A stretch of DNA of 60,930 nt from Candidatus Paceibacter sp. (GTDB lineage: Bacteria; Patescibacteriota; Minisyncoccia; UBA6257; JAGOQP01). The stretch is from positions 1 through 60,930 of the forward strand of contig DYGB01000004.1 of the NCBI GenBank assembly GCA_020724905.1, given 5' to 3'. Positions 5,434 through 60,930 of this stretch are shown here, in pieces. Under the pieces are notes generated by a model, which did not search any database, was not told the origin of the DNA, and was given only the letters and a program-made list of their open reading frames with translations. The position numbers and the translations under genes were made by a program. The stretch's first letter is position 1. Each line of letters starts with the position of its first letter.

Positions 5434-6446
5434 TCCTCCTCTCTATCTCCTATCTTTTCTATTCGTGATACATCTTTGTGGATCTTTTGAAATTCCTTTG
5501 TGGCATGAGCATACGTATTGAGTGTTGTTTCAAGCTGTTTCCCAATTTTATCCATATACTCTTCATACGTGCTCAAATGTTTTGATAACTCCCCTACTCG
5601 TTTAATAATGTCACGTGCTGAAGACTCTATTTGAAATGCTTTAAAGCCATAGAGGATAGATTGAAGATAAGCAGCAAATGTTGTAGGAGAAACAATAATA
5701 ACCTGCTTCTCATGATAGGCGTATTCAATAATGCTTCGGTTACGAGACTTTACCCCTCCAATTTCATTAACTAAAAGATCGTAATAAATAGCTTCTGCAG
5801 GAATAAACATAAAGGCAAAGGGAAGGGTCTTTTCTTCAGGACGAATATATTTTGCTGTCTCATCAACTCGTTTCTTTAAATCATTCACAAATTCTTTTTC
5901 ATATGCTTCTCGCCTCTTATCATCATCTTCATTGATAAGGCGATTATAATTATCTAAAGAAAACTTTGCATCAATAGGGATGATACCTTCTTGAGCTCGT
6001 ATCACTGCATCAACCTTCTCTCCATTTGAAAACATGTATTGGAGTTCAAAGGCATCAGGAGGCAAAATATTGTTAAGGATAAGCTCAAGTCCTGCTTCTC
6101 CAATGCTTCCTCTCTGTTTTTGATTTTTAAATACTTTTTCAAGATTTTGCAGTTGTTCGGTAATACCAAACACCTGTTTGTTTGTTTCTTTTACCCCGGT
6201 GAGTTCTTGTGTTACTTCTTTTAACACTTTTTGAGATTCAAAGAGTCGTTGTTGCAATGACTCTTGCATCCCCTGCATTTGGTTTTGGATAAGTGAGAGT
6301 TCATTATCTGAATGTTTTTGATCTTTCTTTTTAAATAACAAAACAAGCACTACCACTGTAGCGATCTGTATTATCAACACAATACCGATTCCTATCCACT
6401 CCATATATGATATGATGAGTGTACCATATGAAAGATACATCGTCAT
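5430..6446 (-). CDS. rmuC: DNA recombination protein RmuC
   Basis: N-terminal TM helix, coiled coil, then an RmuC-type nuclease-like C-terminal region (..IPIDAKFSLDNY.., FMFIPAEAIYY). Start may be the ATG at 6404 (MEWIGIG...). Confidence 0.8.
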   Translation of the reverse strand: MTMYLSYGTLIISYMEWIGIGIVLIIQIATVVVLVLLFKKKDQKHSDNELSLIQNQMQGMQESLQQRLFESQKVLKEVTQELTGVKETNKQVFGITEQLQNLEKVFKNQKQRGSIGEAGLELILNNILPPDAFELQYMFSNGEKVDAVIRAQEGIIPIDAKFSLDNYNRLINEDDDKRREAYEKEFVNDLKKRVDETAKYIRPEEKTLPFAFMFIPAEAIYYDLLVNEIGGVKSRNRSIIEYAYHEKQVIIVSPTTFAAYLQSILYGFKAFQIESSARDIIKRVGELSKHLSTYEEYMDKIGKQLETTLNTYAHATKEFQKIHKDVSRIEKIGDREED

Positions 6447-36346: not shown

Positions 36347-36494
36347 TATTGTCTTTGTTGATTGTAAATAACGATCAAATATAGATACACCATATCTAAA
36401 ACCCGACCTTGTTCCGTATATAGTTTATATTTGACACCTCAAGGATAGCACACTGCAAGAATAATAGCAATAGATACTCCCCTCACCTCACGTG

Positions 36495-37766
36495 ATGTGG
36501 TACCATGGGTCTATGATCCTCTCATGGATATATACAGGAATATACTTTTTTACCAGATTCTTCCCTCATTATGGATGGCGTATTATTGATGGGCTCATTC
36601 TGTTTCTTGGGGGAAATACTCTTGTATATACCACTGTCCTTGCTCTGTATCGACGTCGCATTAAACACAGTAGAGCACCTAAAACTATCTGCGTCCTTGC
36701 TGATGTAAATATTGGGGATGCTATTGCAATGCAGGGAGCTATCTCTGCGCTTCATGATTTTTTCCCTGATGCTACTATTGAGTATGTTGTTGGTAAGTCA
36801 TCTCTTCCACTTATTATCAATAATCCCTACATCACTCATATCTATCCACTCTATACAACTGCCCCTTTCCCAGACAAGAAGGCTAAAGATGCTATTGCTA
36901 AACTCATGGATGAGAAGAGATACGACCTTATTGTTAACATGTCTCCCTTTCTTTCCTTAAAAACTGCTTCTCCGCATATTGGATTTCTTGGTCTTGCTTT
37001 TTTTATGCTCTATCAACGTGCACACAAAAAACGTGTTCACTTATTTTCTTCTCCCTACACATTTATCCATACCATTTTAAAACCACTCTACACCCCAGCA
37101 CAAAAGACCCCCTACACACATCCCCTCCTCTTTCTTCCAAAAAATGCTCTCCTCAATGCACAACAGATCCTTTCACAGCGAAAAGAACAAGGTCCTGTTA
37201 TTTTCTTTAATGGAGAAACAATATCTCCCTATACACGTATTCCTCACAACATACAGCATACGCTTATAGAAAAACTCTTGTCTCTCCCCTGCTCACTTAT
37301 TATTCCCTTTCATAAAGACACACCGGATAATCTTACGGGCTATATACAAACACTTCCCAAAGAAAAACAAACTAAGTGTATATTTCTTCCTATCCCTATG
37401 GAACTTGATACTTATGCAGCTCTCATGGATGCATCTGATCTTGTCCTCAGTGGTGATACGGGACCACTCCATATTGCAGCCGCACACAAAGAGAGTATTG
37501 ATGATACGTATTCATTTAAAAATGATACCGCTCTCTATGCTATTTTTGGAGCTACCGATGCATATATGTACGGATACGATTCCTTTCGTCCTCTTTATAC
37601 CCCTGCGAGCCAAAGCGCTCCCTCAAGGGTGTATATAGGGTCACGAAGATATAGAACACTTGCCCACATCAACAAGAATTCTATTTACGGAGAACCTTCT
37701 CTGTTTTTTGATGATATTGATGTAGATGTCATTATCTCAGACATCAGAGCACATCTAGATATCTAG
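36495..37766 (+). CDS. glycosyltransferase family 9 (heptosyltransferase-like)
   Basis: IGDAI....A...L...FP.A.I, and C-terminal GDTGPLHIAAA resembling the GT9 DSGPMHLAAA motif. N-terminal TM helices. Confidence 0.65.
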   Translation: MWYHGSMILSWIYTGIYFFTRFFPHYGWRIIDGLILFLGGNTLVYTTVLALYRRRIKHSRAPKTICVLADVNIGDAIAMQGAISALHDFFPDATIEYVVGKSSLPLIINNPYITHIYPLYTTAPFPDKKAKDAIAKLMDEKRYDLIVNMSPFLSLKTASPHIGFLGLAFFMLYQRAHKKRVHLFSSPYTFIHTILKPLYTPAQKTPYTHPLLFLPKNALLNAQQILSQRKEQGPVIFFNGETISPYTRIPHNIQHTLIEKLLSLPCSLIIPFHKDTPDNLTGYIQTLPKEKQTKCIFLPIPMELDTYAALMDASDLVLSGDTGPLHIAAAHKESIDDTYSFKNDTALYAIFGATDAYMYGYDSFRPLYTPASQSAPSRVYIGSRRYRTLAHINKNSIYGEPSLFFDDIDVDVIISDIRAHLDI

Positions 37767-38384
37767 TTTCTCTTGAGCTATCTGCTCAGAGAGTTTTTTA
37801 GATTCTTTTCTGTATATATAAAAGATAGCGATAACAGAGATAACTGTCATACCAAATGCGTACAGACCACTTTGAAGTGTTTCTGCAATACTTTCATAGA
37901 AATGCCCAAATGAATACCCAACGATCATAAAGAATATGACTTTAGGGATAATGATAGAGACAATGGTGACAAGAAATTTCTTTACAGGCATTTTTGTAAT
38001 ACCTGAAGCAATAATTCCTGGGACTGCAAGAATAGGAGATATTTTAAGAGCAAGAAGCATCTTTCCTGGATGACGCTCAAAGAGAACGCGTAGTTTTTCC
38101 AATCTCTCTTGAGAGAGTCCTATATATTTTCCATACTTTTCTATAAATGATTCTCGAGATCCATACCCCACAACATACCAGATAAGGTCCCCAATAATAT
38201 CCCCTAAAACACCGAGTATAAATATCGTAGGGAGATCAATATATCCCATTGTTGCACCAAACGATGCAACAAGAATAATAGTAGGGCCTTCAAAAATCAT
38301 CCCCACAACAAGCACGAGAGAACTGTTGTGTATAATCCAATCAAGAAGTATCTGTGCTGATTCACCAATGGGAGGAATAGTCAT
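37755..38384 (-). CDS. dedA: DedA/VTT-domain membrane protein
   Basis: 209 aa multi-TM protein with LG...GD...Y..GY and a DedA-like layout. Confidence 0.75.
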   Translation of the reverse strand: MTIPPIGESAQILLDWIIHNSSLVLVVGMIFEGPTIILVASFGATMGYIDLPTIFILGVLGDIIGDLIWYVVGYGSRESFIEKYGKYIGLSQERLEKLRVLFERHPGKMLLALKISPILAVPGIIASGITKMPVKKFLVTIVSIIIPKVIFFMIVGYSFGHFYESIAETLQSGLYAFGMTVISVIAIFYIYRKESKKLSEQIAQEKLDI

Positions 38385-38389
38385 AAAAA

Positions 38390-38938
38390 TTATTTTCCTG
38401 AAAGTTCTTCTTCTCGTGTATGTATTCTTGAAAATATTTGCTTGTCAATATATCCAATAATTCCAACCCCCATTACCGATCCTAAAAACCCTAAGATGAT
38501 ATCTCCCATAGTATCAGATAGTCCTGATTGTGCAGGAGCTCCAAGATATACAAAACTGTGTAGTGTTGAACCCTCAAAGAAATCGGCAATATATTCTTGA
38601 GATTCCCACAGTATAGTAATAAGAGAGACTAACCCCACAACAATAAGTGCGGACTTGAAAAATGTCTTTTTAAAGATGTTGTATTGTGGATATTTGTGAA
38701 TAATCCATACGATACCAACCGCCTCCACAAGACCTCCAAAGAAATGAACCACTCCATCATAACCAAAGAACCCTATGTCACATCCCAGTATGCCAAAACA
38801 TCCAGACCCACCAGCTAACTCAAACATCGTTTCTTCAAAATATTTAAACACAAACAAGAAACAATATAAAAAGAGAATTGTATAAAATACGAAATCAAAT
38901 TGCTGATCCTGAATTTTTTCTTGTGTATTATTTTCCAT
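38390..38938 (-). CDS. hypothetical multi-pass membrane protein (182 aa)
   Basis: ORF with 4-5 hydrophobic segments. Confidence 0.5.
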   Translation of the reverse strand: MENNTQEKIQDQQFDFVFYTILFLYCFLFVFKYFEETMFELAGGSGCFGILGCDIGFFGYDGVVHFFGGLVEAVGIVWIIHKYPQYNIFKKTFFKSALIVVGLVSLITILWESQEYIADFFEGSTLHSFVYLGAPAQSGLSDTMGDIILGFLGSVMGVGIIGYIDKQIFSRIHTREEELSGK

Positions 38939-38993
38939 TACAATACTAGTTAGTATATATTTATTCCTTTCTCCAAATCAAATTCTTTAAAAG

Positions 38994-39020
38994 ATAAAAG
39001 GGACCTTTATAAGGTCCCTT
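38994..39020 (-). terminator. rho-independent terminator
   Basis: Stem GGGACC/GGTCCC (39000-39005/39013-39018), extended by AA/TT, followed by a T-run on the minus strand. Confidence 0.7.
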
Positions 39021-39034
39021 GAAGGAATCATGCA

Positions 39035-39394
39035 CTACTCTTCAAACAAATTAAGTAAACTTCCGATTATAGCACCTCTTAAGTGTTCTTTTGTGCTTTC
39101 TTCTACTTTTACAATTTTCCATCCCTTCGCAATTTTAAGACTTTCTTTAGTTCCGCCGATCTCTTGATCAACAGACATCCAGAAAAGATTTCTTAGTAAA
39201 CTTGCTTTTCTCTTCATGTTACGAAGTTCTTCGTGAAAATCTTCGCATTCATGAGAATTATCAGATCCATTACCACTAAACATGTGGTCAACATGAAATT
39301 GAGCATGCTCCTGCATTTTTCTTTCTGCTTCCTCTGCAACAGAAGCGTGTAGGGACCATATCTTTTTTGATATTTCTCCAGCTTCCCCTAACAC
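39035..39394 (-). CDS. hypothetical protein (119 aa; GTG or upstream ATT start)
   Basis: ORF downstream of a TTGACA-17-TAGTAT promoter. The start codon is uncertain. Confidence 0.4.
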   Translation of the reverse strand: MLGEAGEISKKIWSLHASVAEEAERKMQEHAQFHVDHMFSGNGSDNSHECEDFHEELRNMKRKASLLRNLFWMSVDQEIGGTKESLKIAKGWKIVKVEESTKEHLRGAIIGSLLNLFEE

Positions 39395-39504
39395 CTCTTC
39401 TTCCTCTGAAAATTCTGGAACTTCTTCAATGAATTCTTAAGGTGCCGAAATATACTAAACTATATAAAGATAGTTGTCAATAACATCCAAAAAACACACT
39501 CACC

Positions 39505-40254
39505 TTATGGAAGATATTGTTGTTCAAGCTCAAGAATGGTAGCGCCATCAGGAATAATCATAATAGGATATGATGTAAATGAATTATCCTTTGATGCTTC
39601 TAGAAATCCTTCCAAAGAAACCTCCTTTAATACAGGAGATCCTGGAGACTGGAATACTCGTATACTGCTTTCCTGAGTAAGAATATATACTTCATTTTCT
39701 TGCTCAACATCTCGAATATAAAAATTATTATTCATACTTGGGACACAATCGGTGATTGTTTCTACCGTGCAGTCTGTATCCCCCAACGCTTTTTCAAGCG
39801 CTTCATCTCCTGAAAGAAATTCAACTATATTAATATGTACAAGCACATTCTGACTATTCTCAACCACCTCATTTACAAATCCAAATATTCTTCCTGATTC
39901 TTTCTGTGGTGCTATTGTTCTCACAATAACACTGTCTTGATCTTCTATTCCTTCAACAAATACTTCTTTTCCTACAAATTCTTCTTTATCAACTTGCTCA
40001 CTTTCACACAAAAGAGCTTCTCCTGAAATCATACAGATGCTTTCCTTATCAAACACAAGCTTCTTAAAAAGCCCTGGAGCTCCTGGTTTCTCATATACCA
40101 GTGAAAGTGTTTCTTCTTGTTGTGAAACATACCCTCTCTGTGAAAACAAATCTTGAGAGTAGTTATTATCACTTGGATTATCTCGACCCCCTAATACAAT
40201 AAGAACAACTCCTACAAGGATAAGAATTGCAATTCCGTATATATATTTTCTCAT
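39505..40254 (-). CDS. N-terminally anchored secreted hypothetical protein (249 aa)
   Basis: Signal-anchor helix. No motif recognised. Confidence 0.55.
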   Translation of the reverse strand: MRKYIYGIAILILVGVVLIVLGGRDNPSDNNYSQDLFSQRGYVSQQEETLSLVYEKPGAPGLFKKLVFDKESICMISGEALLCESEQVDKEEFVGKEVFVEGIEDQDSVIVRTIAPQKESGRIFGFVNEVVENSQNVLVHINIVEFLSGDEALEKALGDTDCTVETITDCVPSMNNNFYIRDVEQENEVYILTQESSIRVFQSPGSPVLKEVSLEGFLEASKDNSFTSYPIMIIPDGATILELEQQYLP

Positions 40255-40318
40255 ATATTCTCTATTGTATGAAGAATTACAGGAAATTCAAGATATGTAT
40301 ATGATATACTTTTACTGT

Positions 40319-41722
40319 ATGTCTGAGAAAAAATCATTTCCCATACCTCCTTCCATACGGAAACTCGTTGGCCCTAGTTTTATTATCCTTGCCTTAGGTC
40401 TTGGTTCTGGTGAAGTTATTCTCTGGCCCTATCTTGCTTCCAACTATGGACTTGGGATTGTGTGGGCAGCTATTGTGGGAATTACATTCCAATTCTTCAT
40501 TAACATGGAGATAGAACGCTATGCTCTTGTACGAGGAGAAAGCGTCTTTGTTGGTATCGCTCGATTTTTAAGATGGCCTTCATACTGGTTTATTCTTTCA
40601 ACATTTATTGGATTTGGTCTTCCTGGTATCATTGCTGCCTCTGCGCATGTATTTGGATCACTGGTTGGTATTGAAGATTTTCGATGGATTGCTGTTGGTA
40701 TGCTTGTTGTGATAGGGATTGTGTTAAGTGCAGGAAAGACTGTATATAGGCTCATGGAGCTTATTACTCGAACAGTTCTTCTTGTTGGTGTTCCCTTTAT
40801 CTTTATTCTCGCTCTTTTTATCAGCTCTCCTTCTGATTGGATTTCACTTGGAGAAGGGCTTATAGGACAAGGGAATGGATTTTCTTTCTTCCCTGAGGGT
40901 CTTGCTCTAGCTACATTTCTTGCTGCGTTTGCTTACTCAGGAGCTGGAGGAAACCTCAACCTTACCCAGTCTATTTATGTACGAGAGAAAGGATATGGCA
41001 TGGGAGCATACGCACAACGTATTGCAGGACTCTTTCATTCACAATCAGCTCTTCCGGTACGTCTTGAGGGAGAATCATGTCATGTTGATGAAGAAAATAT
41101 CTCTCGATTCAAACAGTGGTGGAGAAGCATGAATATAGAGCATGGGATTGTTTTTTGGTTGATTGGAAGTATCTCAATGCTTCTGTTAATGCTTCTTGCA
41201 TTTTCAACAACATCTGGATTTTCTGACAATGCTCAGGGAATACAGTTTGTTATCAATGAAGGTATGGCTATTGGAGGAATACTCTCCCCTCTTGTTGGTG
41301 TTATCTTTCTTGTTGCTGTTACCATTATGCTGTTTCAAACACAACTTGGGGTCATGGATTCAACGAGCAGAATTATGTCTGAAAATGTTGCAACAATACA
41401 GTTGCGGAAAAATCCTGAGAAAAAAATATACCTTTCTCGCATATATTCATATTTTGTCTGGGCACAGATTGCATTTGGATCACTCCTCTTTTTCCTTGGT
41501 ATGTATGAACCAAAACAGCTCCTTGTTCTTGGTGCTGTGATCAACGCTTTTGCTATGTGTGTTCATATCGCTCTGGTTTCATGGTTAAACAAAAAAGGCC
41601 TTGAAAAAGTATTTCAGCCTCGTTTGTGGAGAAAGGTAGTTATTGGAATTATCTTTCTGTTCTTTAGTGGATTTAGTATTGTTGTTCTTTTGGATGCCCT
41701 TGGTGTTGTTGTCTTTCTATAG
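40319..41722 (+). CDS. NRAMP-family divalent metal transporter-like protein
   Basis: GPSFI.LALGLGSGE....Y motif and about 11 TM segments. Start trimmed to the ATG at 40319. Confidence 0.8.
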   Translation: MSEKKSFPIPPSIRKLVGPSFIILALGLGSGEVILWPYLASNYGLGIVWAAIVGITFQFFINMEIERYALVRGESVFVGIARFLRWPSYWFILSTFIGFGLPGIIAASAHVFGSLVGIEDFRWIAVGMLVVIGIVLSAGKTVYRLMELITRTVLLVGVPFIFILALFISSPSDWISLGEGLIGQGNGFSFFPEGLALATFLAAFAYSGAGGNLNLTQSIYVREKGYGMGAYAQRIAGLFHSQSALPVRLEGESCHVDEENISRFKQWWRSMNIEHGIVFWLIGSISMLLLMLLAFSTTSGFSDNAQGIQFVINEGMAIGGILSPLVGVIFLVAVTIMLFQTQLGVMDSTSRIMSENVATIQLRKNPEKKIYLSRIYSYFVWAQIAFGSLLFFLGMYEPKQLLVLGAVINAFAMCVHIALVSWLNKKGLEKVFQPRLWRKVVIGIIFLFFSGFSIVVLLDALGVVVFL

Positions 41723-42232
41723 CTTCCTACTATCATACGCCCAGTGAAGAAGTGCTTGTCTCTGTTTTCTTCTGCACCCCTCATCTCCTTTACTACAATT
41801 CTTCTGTATTTGAGCTACGTGTCTTTTTATTGCTTTCCATCTCTTTATTTGTCTCTGGTCATCCTCATGTCGTCTTCCTTGAAAGTAACGACAATACCAT
41901 TGAAACCATCCTCGTGGGTCATCAGGGTGTATCCATCCTTTCTCTTGCCATACAGCAAGGGGTTGAGATGCATCAACACCAAAATAATTGATGGATATGT
42001 CTTTTTTCTCAGGAGAAAGCTTTGCCTGGGAAAACCAATCCTTTGGAAATTCTTTTCTACAATCTGTCATATATTTTCCCCCAAATACTCCAAGTGCAAG
42101 CATTTCTTGTGGAGTGAGATCTGGGGTAAAGTCAGGATAAAAGTTTTTCCCAGGAGGTTCTGTGCATATATATGTATACCCCTGTTGCATACGATCATGC
42201 ACCACTATTTTTTTCTTGCTCTTTGGCGTCAT
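41717..42232 (-). CDS. conserved-looking hypothetical cytosolic protein (171 aa)
   Basis: Trp/Arg-rich motif DPRGWFQWYCRYFQGRR. Family not recognised. Confidence 0.55.
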   Translation of the reverse strand: MTPKSKKKIVVHDRMQQGYTYICTEPPGKNFYPDFTPDLTPQEMLALGVFGGKYMTDCRKEFPKDWFSQAKLSPEKKDISINYFGVDASQPLAVWQEKGWIHPDDPRGWFQWYCRYFQGRRHEDDQRQIKRWKAIKRHVAQIQKNCSKGDEGCRRKQRQALLHWAYDSRKL

Positions 42233-43166: not shown

Positions 43167-43223
43167 AGCCTCTCTCCTTTTATTATGAGTACTGTTTATA
43201 GTGATAGTGTATATATCATCTTT

Positions 43224-43259
43224 AGTCAATACTAATGTTATGGTTCCAAGGTCTTGAAC
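43224..43259 (-). repeat. promoter-plus-upstream module, subfamily 2 (partner at 60865-60901)
   Basis: The + strand reads agtcaatactaatgttatggttccaaggtcttgaac, against agtcaatattagtgttatggttcaataccttggaacc at 60865. The first 22 nt match at 20 positions. Confidence 0.6.
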
Positions 43260-43286
43260 TTATTACATCCCTGAATGTTTTGTGTA

Positions 43287-43315
43287 TAAAAAGACCGCTA
43301 CATAACAGCGGTCTT
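43287..43315 (-). terminator. rho-independent terminator
   Basis: Stem AAGACCGCT/AGCGGTCTT overlapping the stop of 43298..43945, followed by a T-run on the minus strand. Confidence 0.7.
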
Positions 43316-43945
43316 AACTTTATACTTATAATACAGAAATAGTATTATCCCTAATATTACAATCGAAGCTGGGTTGAATACAATAAATATCCAATTTTCA
43401 ATCACAACTCCATAAATAAACCAAAAGACTGAAGCAAGCATGAACACGATAATAAATCGTGGCTCAACAGCTCCAGCAGATTTTTCTTTGTACATCTCTC
43501 TTATTTGTCCAATAAGAGGGAAACCAAGTCCAAATAATCCACAAAGAACAAACATATCCCGTACTGATCCCTGAAGGATATATACCAACGGAATCATTAA
43601 GGAAAAGATTACAAGCGTTATCCAGTTTGTCTTTGTAAAACCCTTGTACTCATGAAGTGCAAGGATGATTGGAATATATGGAATACCCAGAAGACCATTT
43701 ACCATCATTCCCATACTTTGATTCAATACTCCATATACGAAGAAAGAGAAGAAGTAACACCCAGAATAAATAAACAATGTTACCGACAATGACTTGCCTG
43801 ACTTCTTTCTCCTTATGGTACCATTCTGTTTTAACAGTGACCATCCTTGAAGTAAAGAAAAGAATGCAGTTCCCAGGAAGCTGAATGTTACCATATTCAA
43901 TCCCCAGTTCTGATATTCAATGGTATGTTTTATAAACTCTTCCAA
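43298..43945 (-). CDS. multi-pass membrane protein (7 TM, PQ-loop-like?)
   Basis: 215 aa. The family call is tentative. Confidence 0.5.
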   Translation of the reverse strand: MEEFIKHTIEYQNWGLNMVTFSFLGTAFFSLLQGWSLLKQNGTIRRKKSGKSLSVTLFIYSGCYFFSFFVYGVLNQSMGMMVNGLLGIPYIPIILALHEYKGFTKTNWITLVIFSLMIPLVYILQGSVRDMFVLCGLFGLGFPLIGQIREMYKEKSAGAVEPRFIIVFMLASVFWFIYGVVIENWIFIVFNPASIVILGIILFLYYKYKVKTAVM

Positions 43946-43991
43946 TGAATACCTCCTTTTATTAATTTGTTAAAAAAACTATCTTGTTTTT

Positions 43992-44020
43992 ATATTAGCA
44001 TAATTTGAGTATTCCGTCAA
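43992..44020 (-). promoter_or_regulatory. sigma70-type promoter (extended -10)
   Basis: Minus strand reads TTGACG-17 nt-TAATAT with TGC immediately upstream of the -10. Confidence 0.5.
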
Positions 44021-44052
44021 TATTAACGTCTTAGTTGCCGGATGATACTGAG

Positions 44053-44694: not shown

Positions 44695-45186
44695 TTAATT
44701 AGACTCTAGCTTATCTACTAAAAGCTTTTCTTTTATCTTCTCAGCTTTTTCTTTCCTACCCATTTTTATATATGCTTCATATTCATCATGTAGACTAAGG
44801 ACGGGTATTTTAATACCATCTATATCTAGTATATTTTTTTGAACCGGCTCTTTTGTTTTACTCCATTCATTGTCTGTTGAATGAAAAGATAACAGATCTC
44901 CCATAACCTCTATCTGAATTCCATCGATAAGAAACTTCCCATAATATGACTTGAAATATTCTGTTTCTTTAAAGTGAACTTTTTCTACTTCATAGTTTTT
45001 AAGAATGTCTCCAATTGCAATTGCTCCACGTTCATCAGTTAGCAAATCTATATCATGTGCATCAACGTCAACTCCTTGTAGCGCTAGATTTAAGCTTCCT
45101 ATAAGCACCCAGTGTATCCCATGGTCTTTGAGTAAAAGTGCTATTTTTTTAATTACATTACTATGTGTTTGTGAAACCATGTACAC
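44695..45186 (-). CDS. pol-beta-fold nucleotidyltransferase domain protein
   Basis: hGS-x13-DIDLL motif (LIGSLNLALQGVDVDAHDIDLL). Size and layout are reminiscent of small antibiotic/MNT-type nucleotidyltransferases. Confidence 0.6.
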   Translation of the reverse strand: MYMVSQTHSNVIKKIALLLKDHGIHWVLIGSLNLALQGVDVDAHDIDLLTDERGAIAIGDILKNYEVEKVHFKETEYFKSYYGKFLIDGIQIEVMGDLLSFHSTDNEWSKTKEPVQKNILDIDGIKIPVLSLHDEYEAYIKMGRKEKAEKIKEKLLVDKLESN

Positions 45187-45893: not shown

Positions 45894-45980
45894 ATTTTTT
45901 ACTTTTTATAGTATATACCCTTATTGTATCAATAAATTACTCTAGATGCATTTACTATCAGATAAGATTGGTTAGGAGAT

Positions 45981-46009
45981 AAAATAAAACCCCCAAAAGT
46001 CTGGGGGTT
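45981..46009 (-). terminator. rho-independent terminator
   Basis: Stem ACCCCCA/TGGGGGT followed by a T-run on the minus strand. Confidence 0.7.
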
Positions 46010-46024
46010 TAGAACTAAATCAAA

Positions 46025-46408
46025 TTATTTCACTAATGTTATATACATCTTCAAACATTGCAATGATGATTGCTCGCCTTCTCCAATCTGCTTTAGCTCA
46101 CAGATCACCGTAACTTCCTTTCCGTCAAGAAGATGTAATAACCCTTTATTCATATTCTTTAATTCTTTTCCTAAGAATACAAACTCTGTACTGGAAGTTA
46201 TTGTTCCAAATACATACCCATACATTCCTTTTCCTTCATTAACACTATGCATTATGGAAAATGAAGGAAGTTCTTTTTGAGACTCATTGTCCCACCTATA
46301 CTCAAAAGCAAATACCCCTTTATCTCCTGTTGTGTATTGCTGTGCACATACTACAGAAGAAAGGATGAAGAAGATAGAAATAAAAATGATTGATTTGATT
46401 GATTTCAT
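46025..46408 (-). CDS. secreted small protein with signal peptide (127 aa)
   Basis: N-terminus MKSIKSIIFISIFFILSSVVCAQQ. Confidence 0.55.
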   Translation of the reverse strand: MKSIKSIIFISIFFILSSVVCAQQYTTGDKGVFAFEYRWDNESQKELPSFSIMHSVNEGKGMYGYVFGTITSSTEFVFLGKELKNMNKGLLHLLDGKEVTVICELKQIGEGEQSSLQCLKMYITLVK

Positions 46409-46450
46409 TGGTCTTACCTTTATTTTGTTGTAAAAAAACTGTGTGTTTGT

Positions 46451-46479
46451 ACTATAGCATAATTATAGTGATAAGTCAA
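46451..46479 (-). promoter_or_regulatory. sigma70-type promoter (extended -10)
   Basis: Minus strand reads TTGACT-17 nt-TATAGT, preceded by TGC. Confidence 0.65.
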
Positions 46480-46517
46480 TATTACACCCTAACAACCCTG
46501 CGGTATAGGGCATAAAA

Positions 46518-46559: not shown

Positions 46560-46784
46560 TTAAAATTTGAGAAAATCAAATGGTGCAAGAATAAAAGTAC
46601 TTATGTATCCACTGATATATTCTATCGCCCTAAAAGCAACTCCCAAGAGCGGATACATTATCAAAATAAAAAACATGTTCCCGACAAAATTTATCGGCTC
46701 TCCTTTTGTATTTGATAAATAACTCTTCCCAAGAAATGCTAGGAAGATCAATACTGCGTAAACAACTATCGATGCAGTTTCCAT
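46560..46784 (-). CDS. small membrane protein (74 aa)
   Basis: Start set at the ATG at 46784 after SD AGGAGA. Two or three hydrophobic helices. Confidence 0.5.
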   Translation of the reverse strand: METASIVVYAVLIFLAFLGKSYLSNTKGEPINFVGNMFFILIMYPLLGVAFRAIEYISGYISTFILAPFDFLKF

Positions 46785-46823
46785 TTTTTCTCCTGCCAAA
46801 TTGTTAAAAATTATTCTATTTAC

Positions 46824-46852
46824 ACTATAGCATAATTATAGTATTTAGTCAA
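46824..46852 (-). promoter_or_regulatory. sigma70-type promoter (extended -10)
   Basis: Minus strand reads TTGACT-17 nt-TATAGT, preceded by TGC. Confidence 0.65.
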
Positions 46853-46900
46853 TATTAGTGCTCTGGTTGTTGGACGAAGTTGAAAAAAAGTAAAATAAAA
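46844..46900 (-). repeat. 57-nt intergenic repeat containing a decayed tRNA-Asn 3'-end copy (copy C)
   Basis: tttagtcaatattagtgctctggttgttggacgaagttgaaaaaaagtaaaataaaa. About 90 percent identical by hand alignment to 48041-48098. Positions 46858-46882 align with the tRNA-Asn 3' end at 49513-49537. Confidence 0.8.
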
Positions 46901-46917
46901 AAGCCCACAAGTGGGCT
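46896..46917 (-). terminator. rho-independent terminator
   Basis: Stem GCCCA/TGGGC with loop CAAG, followed by a T-run on the minus strand. Confidence 0.65.
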
Positions 46918-46936
46918 TTTGCTCTACCCTGTGGGC

Positions 46937-47137
46937 CTAATTTTTGTACATTCTAATAGCCTTTTCTATTACTTCTTCTAGTCCTCTAGGAGGATCACAC
47001 TGGGTTTGAAAGATACTTTGTTCAGTTTCCAAGTCTACAATAGCTACCACTACCGAATATCTTGGTAGTATTTGTAACTCGTCAGTTCTGAAGTCATAGA
47101 TTTCAGTGTCATTGTTGTAAAAGAATATTGCTTTCAT
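46937..47137 (-). CDS. small hypothetical protein (66 aa)
   Basis: Good RBS (AAAGGAGTTAAAA-ATG). Nearest recognisable promoter is about 220 nt upstream. Confidence 0.5.
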   Translation of the reverse strand: MKAIFFYNNDTEIYDFRTDELQILPRYSVVVAIVDLETEQSIFQTQCDPPRGLEEVIEKAIRMYKN

Positions 47138-47176
47138 TTTTAACTCCTTTAAAAAATTATTTTAATTTAAATTAAT

Positions 47177-47336
47177 TTAGTTTTGCTCACCTTAACCTAG
47201 GGAGCGATGTCTCAAATATAAGACTTCGGTCCTTTCTAAACAAGGATATCGCAAGATAAGGAGTTTTCGATATAAGTGGTTAGCTCTCAAAAGCTACAGT
47301 GTTATTATAACCTTTGAGAGCTAACCAATCTTTTTT
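47177..47336 (+). ncRNA. candidate structured RNA of unknown class (strand uncertain)
   Basis: 332-nt ORF-free gap. The + strand shows a C(UUCG)G hairpin (47222-47231), TATC-GCAA-GATA (47247-47258), mutually exclusive stems using GATATCG, and a 14-bp stem (47278-47291/47313-47326) followed by AATC and T6. Confidence 0.35.
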
Positions 47337-47362
47337 AAAAGAACAATTAATACTACTTTACT

Positions 47363-47392
47363 ATTATATCACAGATATATATCATTTGTCAA
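47363..47392 (-). promoter_or_regulatory. sigma70-type promoter
   Basis: Minus strand reads TTGACA-18 nt-TATAAT. Confidence 0.55.
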
Positions 47393-47429
47393 GTACCTTA
47401 ATTATTTTATAGGACTGAAAAAGAAGTAA

Positions 47430-47463
47430 AATAAAAACCCTTCCTGTAAAAACAAAAAGGGTT
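47430..47463 (-). terminator. rho-independent terminator
   Basis: Stem AACCCTT/AAGGGTT followed by a T-run on the minus strand. Flanked by the gaaaaagaagtaaaataaaaa segment shared with the 46.9 and 48.1 kb repeats. Confidence 0.6.
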
Positions 47464-47469
47464 TAATAC

Positions 47470-47976
47470 TTACTTGTAAGCCATTTTTTTAATGAGTTCC
47501 GGCGCTTTTCTCTTTAACTCTTCTTTTTTTACAAAGACAGGAAACGACCCAGGCCAATCCATCTTGCTAATCGGATTCCCATATATATCATAGGCCGTTC
47601 TCCCCCTTCGTTTTGTTTCCCATCCAATACTATAAAAACCTTCCTCATCAGAGTTAGTTACAAAAACTTCATTACTCAGGCACTCCGGATGATAATTCTT
47701 TCTAAACATCCTTCTTGTTATCGTTTTTGCTATGCCTATTCCAACTAATGAAGGGCCAACTGACAGACACCAGAGGATACCAACTAAATCGTGTAAATTG
47801 GGTGCGTTAACAGCATATTGTAATAACCCCATTAATCCAAATATTCCCAAAAGTATCCAATGAACTATAAGCATACTTCTATTCTGTCTTCCCACAAATT
47901 CTATCATTATATGTGCAGAAATAATGATCACAGGAAGAAGTGCGTAGATAAGGATAATTGACTCTAAAGAACTCAT
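47470..47976 (-). CDS. 3-TM membrane protein with soluble C-terminal domain (168 aa)
   Basis: Start set at the ATG at 47976 after SD GGAGGA. Confidence 0.55.
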   Translation of the reverse strand: MSSLESIILIYALLPVIIISAHIMIEFVGRQNRSMLIVHWILLGIFGLMGLLQYAVNAPNLHDLVGILWCLSVGPSLVGIGIAKTITRRMFRKNYHPECLSNEVFVTNSDEEGFYSIGWETKRRGRTAYDIYGNPISKMDWPGSFPVFVKKEELKRKAPELIKKMAYK

Positions 47977-48020
47977 TTGATCCTCCAACTATTTTGTTAT
48001 AAAAAAACTATGTTATATAT

Positions 48021-48049
48021 TAAATAGCATAGTTTTAATATTTAGTCAA
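48021..48049 (-). promoter_or_regulatory. sigma70-type promoter (extended -10)
   Basis: Minus strand reads TTGACT-17 nt-TATTTA, preceded by TGC. Confidence 0.55.
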
Positions 48050-48098
48050 TATTAGTGCCCTGGTTGTTGGACGAAGTTGGAAAAGAAATAAAATAAAA
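48041..48098 (-). repeat. 58-nt intergenic repeat containing a decayed tRNA-Asn 3'-end copy (copy B)
   Basis: tttagtcaatattagtgccctggttgttggacgaagttggaaaagaaataaaataaaa. Positions 48055-48079 align with the tRNA-Asn 3' end. Confidence 0.8.
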
Positions 48099-48119
48099 GG
48101 CCGCTTGAATAAGCGGCCT
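48092..48119 (-). terminator. rho-independent terminator
   Basis: Stem AGGCCGCTT/AAGCGGCCT with loop GAAT, followed by a T-rich tract on the minus strand. Confidence 0.75.
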
Positions 48120-48125
48120 GTAAAA

Positions 48126-49433
48126 TTAAGCAAATGGCTTACATATTTTTGATTTTGCTGCCATAAAACCCAATTTGAATTTTGTAGAAACGTCAACCTT
48201 TTTAATGACATCTTCTATTACAACCTTTGAAGGCAAGTTTTTTAGGGAGGCATTAGCTTTGAGGAATTCCTTTTCTTTATCCCCTTTTTCCTTTTGTTTA
48301 ACGATACGGTATTCTTCTAATTCCCTCTCAATCTCTTTTCTTTTCTTCATCTTTTCTTCATCTTTTTTCTTTCTCTTTTCTTCTCTTTCATGTCTATTTC
48401 TCAGTCCTAATTTCTTAATACTGTATATAGCAAGAAGAAGAACAGCTATTCCTACTAAAACACTGTAGTTATTTTCTGTTTTAGAGATGATCCCTTCACC
48501 AACGCTGGAAATGATAGAATATATCGTCCAAGTTATCAGCCCAGCAACTACATAGAGAAAAGGGGTGAAATATAATGGAATTTTTTTATTATCATTATAA
48601 TCATCCCACCACCAATACTCATCTTTACTTTTCCATAAACGCCAACGCGAAAAACCACGTCTTCGCCTAAAATAGAAAAGGTTGTGTATTTCATTGCTGT
48701 TCTCTCCTCCAAAATCTTTAATTCCTATGGGACGAAATCCAAAAAAAAGAAGGAATAAAGACCCTAAAAACCAATATAGATACGCAGCAATTACAAAAAC
48801 CACTCCTACAAACTTTGCAAGTCCCATACCAATCATGTGAAAAATAAACACAAATGGCTGTATGGTAAAAGCAAATATCTTTCTTTTTCGGTATTGACAT
48901 TGATCAATTGGTTCTTTTTTGAAATACTTATTCACCCAATTCCATACAAATTCCCCAAACCCTTTCTTTGGTTTATGAGCAAATAATTCATCGGGAACTT
49001 CAAAATCCGTAGCAATTATGTATACTCTTTTATTACGCAAAACGCCTCCTTGATCTAAATCCTTATACAAGATGTGGGAAGGACCATAATTTTTCAGATG
49101 TATATCAACATAATCTGATGCATCTCTCATTGTTTCCCCACAAAAAACATACATTAGAAAAGTATGTTTTCCAGGAGATTTCAAAGGAATATAAGCGGCA
49201 AGTTCTTTTGCTTTTCCGATAAATAATAAATCACCGGAGAAAAACTTAAAATGATCCTCAGACTTAAAATCTGAAAGGGTCTTCCCTTTTATATCAACAA
49301 TTGCAACGTACTGCGGGTTTTCCTCAACAAGCCCTTCTGAAAAACCCCATCGTACTGGAATAGTAGCGGAATCTAAAACATCATTCCCACCGTTAAGAAC
49401 CATCTTGATGTTCGAAGAACCAATAGCTTTCAT
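48126..49433 (-). CDS. hypothetical membrane protein (435 aa): soluble N-domain, about 4 TM, Lys/Glu-rich coiled-coil tail
   Basis: SD GGAGG 7 nt before the ATG. No motif recognised. Confidence 0.6.
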   Translation of the reverse strand: MKAIGSSNIKMVLNGGNDVLDSATIPVRWGFSEGLVEENPQYVAIVDIKGKTLSDFKSEDHFKFFSGDLLFIGKAKELAAYIPLKSPGKHTFLMYVFCGETMRDASDYVDIHLKNYGPSHILYKDLDQGGVLRNKRVYIIATDFEVPDELFAHKPKKGFGEFVWNWVNKYFKKEPIDQCQYRKRKIFAFTIQPFVFIFHMIGMGLAKFVGVVFVIAAYLYWFLGSLFLLFFGFRPIGIKDFGGENSNEIHNLFYFRRRRGFSRWRLWKSKDEYWWWDDYNDNKKIPLYFTPFLYVVAGLITWTIYSIISSVGEGIISKTENNYSVLVGIAVLLLAIYSIKKLGLRNRHEREEKRKKKDEEKMKKRKEIERELEEYRIVKQKEKGDKEKEFLKANASLKNLPSKVVIEDVIKKVDVSTKFKLGFMAAKSKICKPFA

Positions 49434-49478
49434 TACATTACCTCCATTTATTAAATTGTAAAAAATTATGCTATTTAG

Positions 49479-49507
49479 AATATAGCATAATTATAGTACT
49501 TAGTCAA
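49479..49507 (-). promoter_or_regulatory. sigma70-type promoter abutting the tRNA-Asn 3' end
   Basis: Minus strand reads TTGACT-17 nt-TATATT with TGC upstream of the -10. The -35 box starts 9 nt after the tRNA discriminator base. Confidence 0.65.
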
Positions 49508-49515
49508 TATTAGTG

Positions 49516-49832
49516 CTCCGGTGGTAGGACTCGAACCTACAACCATCTCCTTACATCTTACCCTTATATTTCTATAAGGAATGGACTATCTCATCATCCT
49601 CAAGAGGATGTGGGGCGCTTCCTCTAATACACGTATTAGAGTACTTCCAAAAAGGAATAGTCTCTACACCTTATTGTAATATTTACAATATTGGCTCGGG
49701 ATTACCATTTAAGGCTTCCCCGATTTCACCCCATGTTTCCAATCCTAGATCTCTCTAGGAGGCTGCGTAATCCCAGTTTTATACTGGGTTTTTCTCTCAC
49801 AGGGAGCCGCTCTACCATTGAGCTACACCGGA
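49516..49832 (-). tRNA. tRNA-Asn(GUU) interrupted by a 245-nt intron in the anticodon loop; no CCA encoded
   Basis: The 5' exon is 49832->49799 (TCCGGTG TA GCTC AATGGTA GAGC G GCTCC CTGT). The 3' exon is 49553->49516 (TAA GGAGA TGGTT GTAGG TTCGAGT CCTAC CACCGGA G). Joined, they give a 72-nt cloverleaf with U1:A72, G73 and anticodon loop CTGTTAA. Confidence 0.85.
49554..49798 (-). ncRNA. group I self-splicing intron, IC3-like, no ORF
   Basis: Follows an exon U and ends in G. Has an internal guide GCAG. Core strings AATCCCGAGCCAA and AAGGTGTAGAGACTA match tRNA-borne IC3 introns from memory. Candidate P2-P9 pairings are identifiable. Confidence 0.8.
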
Positions 49833-60792: not shown

Positions 60793-60841
60793 GATACACC
60801 CCTCTTTTATTTATGGAATTATAAAATAGCTACGTATATCT

Positions 60842-60870
60842 ATTATACATTATTATTATCTATAAGTCAA
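60842..60870 (-). promoter_or_regulatory. sigma70-type promoter
   Basis: Minus strand reads TTGACT-17 nt-TATAAT. Confidence 0.65.
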
Positions 60871-60901
60871 TATTAGTGTTATGGTTCAATACCTTGGAAC
60901 C
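60865..60901 (-). repeat. promoter-plus-upstream module, subfamily 2 (partner at 43224-43259)
   Basis: agtcaatattagtgttatggttcaataccttggaacc. Shares gtcaatattagtg..t.tggtt with the 46.85, 48.05 and 49.5 kb copies. Confidence 0.6.
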
Positions 60902-60930
60902 ACTCTCTGATATATGATGCATCATATGGC

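Follow-up and report, generated by a model that had tools for sequence, protein, structure and literature searches.

The tRNA-Asn locus and its setting

The window analysed here (positions 1 to 60,930 of contig DYGB01000004.1, assembly GCA_020724905.1) comes from an uncultured Parcubacteria/Paceibacterota bacterium of the Candidate Phyla Radiation (CPR), and its subject is an island downstream of a tRNA-Asn gene, in which accessory genes follow one another on the minus strand, mostly separated by a junction with a short box that resembles the 3' end of the tRNA. The island has a GC content of 33%, as against 38-40% in the rest of the window, and is surrounded by housekeeping genes, i.e. groEL, uvrABC, tgt, the dnaK operon, recR and dnaB. 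Its head, the tRNA-Asn gene, is preceded by tRNA-Lys and dnaJ-dnaK-grpE. The GTDB representatives include no close relative of the host: DnaJ of the closest species-representative genome is 47% identical, and in that genome the dnaJ-tRNA-Lys locus has no tRNA-Asn called nearby. Nearer relatives are found among metagenomic assemblies: L081, a Logan assembly of SRR30568137, encodes a DnaJ 83% identical to that of the window, while L086/L087, L088 and L102 were found via homologues of a 435-aa protein of the island, L102 coming from the same sample as L103.

When run on the window, ARAGORN calls only tRNA-Ser and tRNA-Lys, missing the tRNA-Asn because a group I intron splits the gene. Joining exon 1 (49832-49799) to exon 2 (49553-49516) yields a tRNA-Asn(GTT) by the same program, and the intervening segment matches the group I covariance model RF00028 of Rfam at 49562-49779 on the minus strand (77.8 bits, E 4.4e-18; gathering score 50), so that a model match and exons splicing to a valid tRNA are found together. 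The exon junction is confirmed by the intron-less orthologue in L103, which reads ...CCCTGTTAAGGAG..., and the first-pass annotation of this DNA was thus right to regard the gene as the real tRNA-Asn. The last nucleotide of the gene is G49516, after which come CAC and TAATATTGACT; the final 28 nt, CAC included (49540-49513), are both the box's template and the copy that anchors the array. The intron itself is polymorphic among close relatives: it is 245 nt long and lacks an open reading frame (ORF) in the window (49554-49798, minus strand), holds a 116-aa HNH-like homing-endonuclease ORF in L081 (4108-4648) and is absent in L103 (1815-1857).

Anatomy of the cassettes and their junctions

We read the segment of about 42.3-49.5 kb, with a probability of roughly 70%, as a hypervariable array of self-contained expression cassettes, each of one gene or rarely two, anchored on the 3' end of the tRNA-Asn gene. 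Followed in the direction of the tRNA, a cassette shows a characteristic anatomy: a strong sigma-70 promoter with an extended -10 element, a palindrome, a short 5' untranslated region (5'UTR) with a Shine-Dalgarno (SD) sequence, the ORF, an intrinsic terminator, a T-rich tract and finally the 26-nt box, which copies the segment of tRNA-Asn from the T loop to the 3' end together with CAC. The tRNA end and the promoter adjacent to it are the proximal copy of the junction that separates successive cassettes (Table 1). Most boxes are fused to a homologous promoter and 5'UTR module; one junction has been reduced to a decayed box with a promoter of another kind. In the window, boxes and strong modules are found between 43.9 and 49.5 kb and nowhere else.

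The module next to the tRNA (module A) combines a -35 element TTGACT (49507-49502), an extended -10 element TGcTATATT, a perfect 11-7-11 palindrome (49492-49464) and an SD sequence; by hand count, it is about 96% identical over its first ~75 nt to the module upstream of a 441-aa homologue of the 435-aa protein in L088. A profile of the promoter/5'UTR module recovers five strong copies, at 49512, 48054, 46857, 46484 and 44025. The TAATATTGACT motif, allowing at most one mismatch, occurs seven times on the minus strand (ends at 43234, 44025, 46484, 46857, 48054, 49512 and 60875) and nine times on both strands, where 3.1 are expected. Terminator-like sites are likewise in excess (11 vs 4.1 expected), four of those behind cassette ORFs sharing the tail TTATTTTAY. 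Nearly every cassette has its own near-consensus promoter and intrinsic terminator, and as a consequence each would be expressed and insulated wherever it lands. The first cassette, which extends from 49512 to 48055, measures 1458 nt.

The first-pass annotation had ascribed a near-consensus TTGACT-17-TATAGT promoter with a TG extension to each repeat. A promoter scan lists such promoters at 49507-49479 (TATATT) and 46852-46824 (TATAGT), while the copy at 48054 (TTGACT-17-TATTTA) is weaker and is not listed. The further proposal that every cassette is expressed from the repeat itself is not supported: the promoter belongs to the downstream cassette and not to a scar, since in four different contexts the 435-aa gene is accompanied by a promoter and 5'UTR of its own, and three boxes lack the promoter module.

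The palindrome, AATTATGCTAT-N7-ATAGCATAATT, lies across the -10 element and is perfect next to the tRNA; elsewhere its arms are conserved and its spacer varies. It was considered as a lambda-type 9-7-9 core or a dif-like site and rejected as either, the spacer varying freely and the orientation of the arms being unlike that of dif (compared by eye). On the same grounds we treat it as a probable operator, which might put many cassettes under one regulator. The module ends carry no terminal inverted repeats of the kind seen in miniature inverted-repeat transposable elements or Correia elements, the only strong inverted repeats being the terminators and the -10 palindrome. A loose pattern, TAATATTGACK-N12-TATGCTA, was tried and discarded: it matches 45 IMG/VR contigs, all at unrelated phage promoters without the box or the shared 5'UTR, and hence describes just a consensus extended -10 promoter.

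The cargo consists mostly of small membrane or secreted proteins without a known family, none of which has a PADLOC or NCBIfam match. Exceptions are a 215-aa SWEET/MtN3-like transporter (43298-43945, minus strand; PF03083, E 3.4e-10) and an ANT(2'')-like nucleotidyltransferase (44695-45186, minus strand; PF10706, E 4.8e-15). An Rfam scan of the island by E-value gave no match above any gathering score. This includes the leader of the 66-aa gene (47138-47392, minus strand), where a TG-extended perfect consensus promoter is followed by a structured region with a 22-bp perfect hairpin (z-score -7.2); the 225-nt leader could be a cis-regulatory RNA.

Table 1. Features of the tRNA-Asn locus, the island and its flank, in descending order of position, with the outlying box G last
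Feature	Coordinates	Strand	Evidence
tRNA-Asn(GUU) exon 1, acceptor 5' strand to anticodon position 35	49799..49832	-	ARAGORN on spliced exons; L103 orthologue
Group I intron, 245 nt, no ORF, in anticodon loop	49554..49798	-	Rfam RF00028
tRNA-Asn exon 2 + CAC	49513..49553	-	ARAGORN; alignment
Promoter/5'UTR module A, drives 435-aa gene	49434..49512	-	nhmmer E 1.1e-18
435-aa membrane protein, family unassigned; cassette 1 cargo	48126..49433	-	no Pfam, NCBIfam or PADLOC match
Terminator hairpin (48119-48098), T-rich tract, box B (48080-48055)	48055..48119	-	box hidden Markov model E 5.7e-13
Promoter/5'UTR module B, drives 168-aa gene	47977..48054	-	profile E 2.2e-13
168-aa membrane protein, cassette 2 cargo	47470..47976	-	only homologue in L081, 77% identity
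Terminator (47464-47435), T-rich tract, decayed box TTCAGTCCTAtaaaataattaaggtac	47393..47464	-	tRNA-end alignment p 0.017
Cassette 3: promoter TTGACA-18-TATAAT (47392-47363), structured 225-nt 5'UTR, 66-aa ORF (47137-46937)	46937..47392	-	promoter scan; fold z-score -7.2
Terminator (46920-46899), T-rich tract, box C (46883-46858)	46858..46920	-	profile E 4.6e-11
Cassette 4: module C (TTGACT-17-TATAGT) + 74/79-aa membrane ORF	46560..46857	-	profile E 6.8e-15
Cassette 5: module D, 127-aa secreted-looking ORF (46408-46025), terminator (46010-45987), T-rich TTTTATTTTATCTCCT, then truncated box	45960..46484	-	profile E 1.5e-13
Module E (TTGACG-17-TAATAT) + 215-aa SWEET/MtN3-like transporter	43298..44025	-	profile E 1.5e-13
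Type-2 box F (TAAGTTCAAGACCTTGGAACCATAACAT, T-arm-like) fused to TAGTATTGACT promoter, upstream of 73-aa Cys-rich ORF	43167..43262	-	12/14 T-arm matches, p 0.017
171-aa gene, conserved distal flank of array	41717..42232	-	82% identical orthologue in L081
Type-2 box G (GTGGTTCCAAGGTATTGAACCATAACAC) fused to TAATATTGACT promoter, drives 141-aa gene	60793..60903	-	motif scan

The box and its likeness to the tRNA-Asn 3' end

The boxes form a conserved 26-nt family with the consensus CCAACnTCGTCCAACAACCAGAGCAC. Anchored alignment of this consensus to the 3' end of tRNA-Asn gives 15 matches in 18 positions (fixed-register binomial p ~4e-6), and gapped, end-anchored shuffles give p ~1e-4; the 3' ends of tRNA-Lys and tRNA-Ser, used as controls, score around zero or below, i.e. 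at chance level. The alignments thus show that the box derives from, or else mimics, the 3' end of tRNA-Asn. The three strings from which the first-pass annotation had started are indeed present at 49501-49537, 48041-48079 and 46844-46882. Anchored without gaps at the shared TAATATTGACT, copy C (46857) matches the tRNA at 15/18 and copy B (48054) at 14/18 positions; with a 2-nt gap the values become 19/26 and 18/26, so that its count of roughly 20 of 25 retained positions was slightly generous, while the similarity itself is borne out. Copies B and C are 84% identical to each other over 96 nt and, as it had claimed, about 90% identical over the core 57 nt. In the window, a profile of the T-rich tract plus box detects only these two copies. 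Two decayed tRNA-end-like pieces, at 47416-47393 (TTC-AGTCCTA against TTCGAGTCCTA in the tRNA) and 43262-43235 (TAAGTTCAAGACCT...), reach p ~0.017 each, and a related piece at 60903-60876 has p 0.18, which is not significant alone. The segments upstream of modules D (46523-46485) and E (44060-44026) were rejected as tRNA-like, with p 0.18 and 0.52.

Altogether 11 boxes were collected from four genomes, namely the window, L081, L086 (two boxes) and L088 (six junctions within 6.9 kb), with a twelfth, truncated one at the end of contig L102 bringing in a fifth genome. The 11 boxes have a mean pairwise identity of 84.5% and are identical to the tRNA at 14-19 of 26 positions; compared with it, all of them have seven derived substitutions and one 2-nt deletion in common. 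These shared changes show that the boxes descend from one founder already diverged from the tRNA, which has spread as a box carried along by the cassettes, and are not separate displaced tRNA ends.

This bears directly on the explanation favored in the first-pass annotation, which taken literally makes the repeats attL/attR scars of integrase-bearing prophages or islands that inserted serially into tRNA-Asn, each displacing the old 3' end, and have since decayed. An intact tRNA at one edge, direct repeats downstream of it, low GC and presence/absence polymorphism at the repeats are what such a history would leave, and the same pattern is known from the tycheposon islands (10.1101/2020.12.28.424599) and the Dehalococcoides ssrA islands (PMC3146451). 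Ends displaced independently would however differ individually rather than share seven substitutions and a deletion; the units measure only 0.4-1.5 kb and contain no fragments of integrase or phage genes, their promoters, ORFs and terminators being intact; and the same box family is conserved across five genomes. We consequently hold serial integration to be highly improbable: of the scar proposal, the tRNA-Asn 3'-end-like character of the repeats and their fusion to promoters survive, and the picture of separate, decaying displaced ends does not.

The substitutions in the box would break the T stem and two pairs of the acceptor stem, so recent crossovers would have to lie 3' of those positions and not inside the tRNA. 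The 26 nt are also the minimal surviving element of the junction: the T-rich tract has been lost at L086 1360 and L088 1135, and the promoter is absent with the box kept at L081 K1, L088 18 and L088 4852. Conservation of the box between unrelated cassettes (84.5%) roughly matches that of orthologous coding DNA between these genomes (76-84%). T-rich tract plus box folds at 0 kcal/mol, no better than shuffled sequences, and no inverted repeat consistently involves the box; these two analyses were the test for attC-like character.

Comparison with related genomes

The window and L081 are collinear through dnaK, dnaJ, tRNA-Lys and tRNA-Asn. After exon 2, L081 reads ...CACCGGAGCAC TAATATTGACT..., and the promoter so placed drives the 168-aa gene. 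This gene is hence the first after tRNA-Asn in L081 and the second in the window, which makes the 435-aa cassette an insertion relative to L081; module B of the window falls within an 80%-identical block that links the tRNA-adjacent promoter and 168-aa gene of L081 to the window. The inserted cassette is bounded in the window by the tRNA end plus promoter on one side and by box plus promoter on the other. A comparison of related genomes for polymorphism at the repeats, which the first-pass annotation had suggested as a check, accordingly finds a repeat-bounded indel; the converse, that the genes between the repeats are conserved and no indel ends at a repeat, was not observed. Past the 168-aa gene, L081 continues with a terminator, a T-rich tract, a box (CCAACGTCGTCTAATAACCAGAGCAC) and a single SIMPL gene, where the window has 5.2 kb with nine genes; cassette 3 is among the parts absent from L081. 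Synteny resumes at the 171-aa gene.

The 435-aa protein has homologues in L086/L087 (81% identity), L088 (66%) and L102 (66%), and in all four assemblies the cassette comes complete with a promoter, 5'UTR, terminator, T-rich tract and box of its own. Its surroundings differ in each: it stands between tRNA-Asn and the 168-aa cassette in the window, between a methyltransferase gene with box and an 81-aa gene in L086, and between a 169-aa gene with box and a 128-aa gene in L088, while in L102 it is preceded by an unrelated gene and GGAGCAC and followed by the end of the contig, inside the box. In L088 four of the six boxes are followed by the full promoter/5'UTR module. A serine-hydrolase/methyltransferase pair precedes the 435-aa homologue in L086 and follows it in L088, and L088 also retains a 3' remnant of a SWEET-like gene (5909-6008), which matches window positions 43378-43279 at 85%. 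On this evidence the arrays of the window, L081, L086, L088 and L102 are homologous arrays that differ in content and order. The comparison further shows cassettes to be present, absent or reordered among the five related genomes, with breakpoints that fall inside the junction module.

A purely regulatory reading would make the module the signature of a regulon, i.e. an activator site, promoter and operator shared by co-regulated accessory genes, with the likeness to the tRNA due to chance or adjacency and the differences between genomes to ordinary indels. It would account for the perfect palindrome overlapping the -10 element, with its conserved arms and variable spacer, for the extension of the module down to the SD sequence, and for related copies in other places, one outside the island at 60875 and a box-promoter unit in the distant L089; that the loose promoter pattern is generic, occurring in 45 unrelated phage contigs, is also in its favor. 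It fails to explain why the anchored similarity is specifically to tRNA-Asn (p ~4e-6), why boxes persist without any promoter, and why indels and rearrangements between genomes are bounded by the module, with one cassette found in four contexts. A regulatory palindrome is, moreover, compatible with an array of cassettes rather than an alternative to it, and we regard the regulon alone as an unlikely explanation.

A second variable block lies beyond a 467-aa gene: at 36474-40300 the window encodes proteins of 249, 119, 182 (DUF2238), 209 (VTT) and 424 aa (GT9-like), and the corresponding segment of L081 (8222-8900) a single 145-aa protein. A 50-nt intergenic match is the only link between the two there.

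Breakpoints and the possible mode of exchange

In the proposed mechanism, recombination between junction modules would insert, lose and shuffle cassettes, and the newest cassette would land beside the tRNA, as in tandem accretion or in an integron. The junctions that lack a promoter suggest where the exchange might occur: they diverge within 8 nt of the 3' edge of the box, after GCA, GTAC and GCACTAAT, and to the left of the cassette in L102, similarity is limited to GGAGCAC. All four junctions point to a recurrent breakpoint at the 3' edge of the box, the equivalent of the tRNA end. That a recombinase encoded elsewhere acts at this edge (GAGCAC/TAAT) has, in our estimate, somewhat less than an even chance. 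In its fullest form this would amount to an integron-like capture system, where an outside recombinase uses the tRNA-Asn 3' end as the primary site and the 26-nt box as the cassette site, the cassettes being complete promoter-operator-ORF-terminator units; such a system is a real possibility, if less likely than not, and we put it forward tentatively.

Homologous recombination alone offers a different account, by which the modules are ordinary duplicated intergenic DNA, made up of a terminator tail, an old tRNA fragment, a promoter and a 5'UTR, and RecA-type exchange between these 100-150-nt stretches, within a genome or with DNA taken up from relatives, would shuffle the genes they enclose, with neither a dedicated recombinase nor an att site. 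In length and similarity the modules suffice for RecA (85-96% over 75-150 nt), some of them are chimeric with variable breakpoints, all five loci are without a recombinase gene nearby, and the box neither folds nor forms an inverted repeat, unlike many recombinase sites. Harder to reconcile with it is that the box is kept nearly unchanged where the T-rich tract or the promoter has been lost, which is difficult to explain if the box has no role; that at four independent junctions divergence begins only a few nucleotides from GAGCAC; and that the box is, at 84.5% among unrelated cassettes, on a par with the 76-84% of orthologous coding DNA. We consider this account a serious contender, if one that falls well short of being probable, and leave what weight remains for the mechanism to the literal serial-prophage model and the purely regulatory reading.

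Several observations weigh against the interpretation as a tRNA-anchored array with exchange at the box. Linkage to tRNA-Asn is seen in the window and L081, the arrays of L086, L088 and L102 being on short contigs, and in the island itself the junctions from the 79-aa to the 127-aa gene and from the 136-aa to the 215-aa gene have no recognizable box. One related copy, type-2 box G (see below), lies outside the island, 11 kb upstream of tRNA-Asn. Pfam searches with every gene-like ORF of at least ~100 aa found no integrase, transposase or resolvase in the 61-kb window, in line with the first-pass annotation, and precomputed Pfam lists of L001, L079, L081, L086 and L088 contain no recombinase. 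The breakpoints, too, are not all alike: the tRNA-adjacent module of L081 agrees fully with module A between the palindrome and TTTTTTACAA, after which it resembles module B, the fourth module of L088 is a chimera of its two neighbors, and two modules stop after TTGACTAAAT or TTGACTAGATGT. Breakpoints so scattered are more readily explained by homologous recombination or gene conversion than by a precise site-specific crossover. Taken together, the alignments do not demonstrate site-specific integration, and homologous recombination between the 100-150-nt modules is a live alternative to it.

Type-2 boxes and repeats elsewhere

A second kind of box, GGTYCNAAG..TTGAACCATWACAY (…GAACCATAACAC), is fused to a -35 element at 60876-60903 and 43235-43262 on the minus strand of the window and at 1-40 of L089/L091. 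L089/L091 come from a distant Parcubacteria genome, where the type-2 box lies at the very end of a contig and precedes the gene for a homologue of the 435-aa protein with 35% identity. This box may mimic the tRNA end of another lineage. It is the sole exception among the distant homologues of the 435-aa protein (~35% identity, L089-L098), which are otherwise not found in arrays of the box type. Two Logan contigs of SRR5011275, L002 and L080, both break inside tRNA-Lys, and L002 begins at type-2 box G. L080 equals the window at 100% identity over 11.8 kb, and so the same strain was present in a second sample.

Other repeats and associations were noted around the distant homologues. On L098 (2945-3755), again a contig from distant Parcubacteria, small genes also follow one another in a run, and between them recur a terminator and promoter/5'UTR modules of the contig's own (…cttgacgtcgc…aacgttcattcacaaacaggaaagggtatgccatg). 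Accessory regions of Parcubacteria may often contain recurring junction modules. In L095 (244-3991), an RVT_1 reverse transcriptase, a bAvd accessory gene and a 642-aa ORF adjoin the homologue, in what looks like a diversity-generating retroelement.

A lineage-specific module pattern had no match in the JGI metagenome collection, which failed to return even the source contig, so the result is uninformative on dispersal. A degenerate box/tRNA-end pattern was dismissed, its three matches being chance ones in eukaryote-like DNA. Viral scans with the box and the tRNA-Asn end produced no attP candidate; one match, in a coding region, was discounted as due to chance, and another was to a tRNA-Asn gene that a GC-rich phage carries among clustered tRNA genes.

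Comparison with known systems and significance

To our knowledge, very few mobile elements or routes of gene acquisition have been described in the CPR/Patescibacteria, whose genomes are tiny, and a literature search turned up no paper describing integron-like or tRNA-anchored cassette arrays in Patescibacteria. That related genomes gain, lose and reorder cassettes at the repeats suggests a compact route of gene capture in CPR bacteria, and the array, if correctly read, would offer a concrete mechanism for strain-level variation in the surface and membrane proteins of these episymbionts. In practical terms, the conserved strong promoter, the operator-like palindrome and the terminators are candidate genetic parts for these organisms, and the box could serve as a sequence handle for retrieving arrays and their cargo from metagenomes.

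Three classes of known systems invite comparison. In dif modules, small gene modules of Acinetobacter plasmids, a recombinase encoded elsewhere (XerC/D) is thought to be responsible for mobility (PMC6449649, PMC13141974). Like the present cassettes, they comprise a single gene or a few, bring the signals for their expression with them, have short conserved sites at their borders and are shuffled between replicons. The pdif sites are 28 bp long, with the arrangement XerC-6-XerD, and alternate in orientation around the modules. Here, in contrast, all repeats are direct, lie on one strand and are tRNA-derived; by eye they were judged unlike dif, and the only palindrome is the one over the -10 element.

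Tandem-accretion islands at tRNA and tmRNA genes include the tycheposons of Prochlorococcus (10.1101/2020.12.28.424599) and the ssrA islands of Dehalococcoides (PMC3146451), and integrase-less units that keep attL and attR are known as cis-mobilizable elements (CIMEs; PMC5704250). With these islands the array shares an intact tRNA at one edge, direct repeats of its 3' end further in, the presumably newer units nearest to the tRNA, some units without an integrase, and strong strain variation at a single locus. The direct repeats are present in the same orientation as the tRNA, though diverged rather than exact. The parallel extends to details of the ssrA islands (PMC3146451), where the stretch similar to the RNA gene likewise begins in the T loop and the repeat is closely preceded by a short conserved motif that is not part of the tRNA. 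The differences are nonetheless substantial: the units of such islands measure kilobases to tens of kilobases, as against 0.4-1.5 kb with one ORF here; no integrase or integration module, intact or fragmentary, is found in the five loci; and the repeat is a diverged but conserved pseudo-copy (14-19/26), which could not restore the tRNA and is mostly fused to promoter, operator and 5'UTR, in a CPR host.

Integrons, with sedentary chromosomal integrons and attC clusters without an integrase included in the comparison, agree with the array in other respects: co-oriented, mostly single-ORF cassettes each end in a conserved repeat resembling a recombination site, are shuffled between relatives, and have what is presumably the newest cassette at a fixed proximal site, here the tRNA end. 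We gave no weight to GTCCAAC as a counterpart of the integron inverse core RYYYAAC, a fit expected by chance in a 26-nt box. Unlike in integrons, there is no intI adjoining the head of the array, the box is neither an imperfect palindrome nor able to fold as attC does, a tRNA end takes the place of attI, and the cassettes carry promoters and terminators of their own instead of depending on Pc. The array would thus represent a case between the classical tRNA-targeting islands and the integrons.

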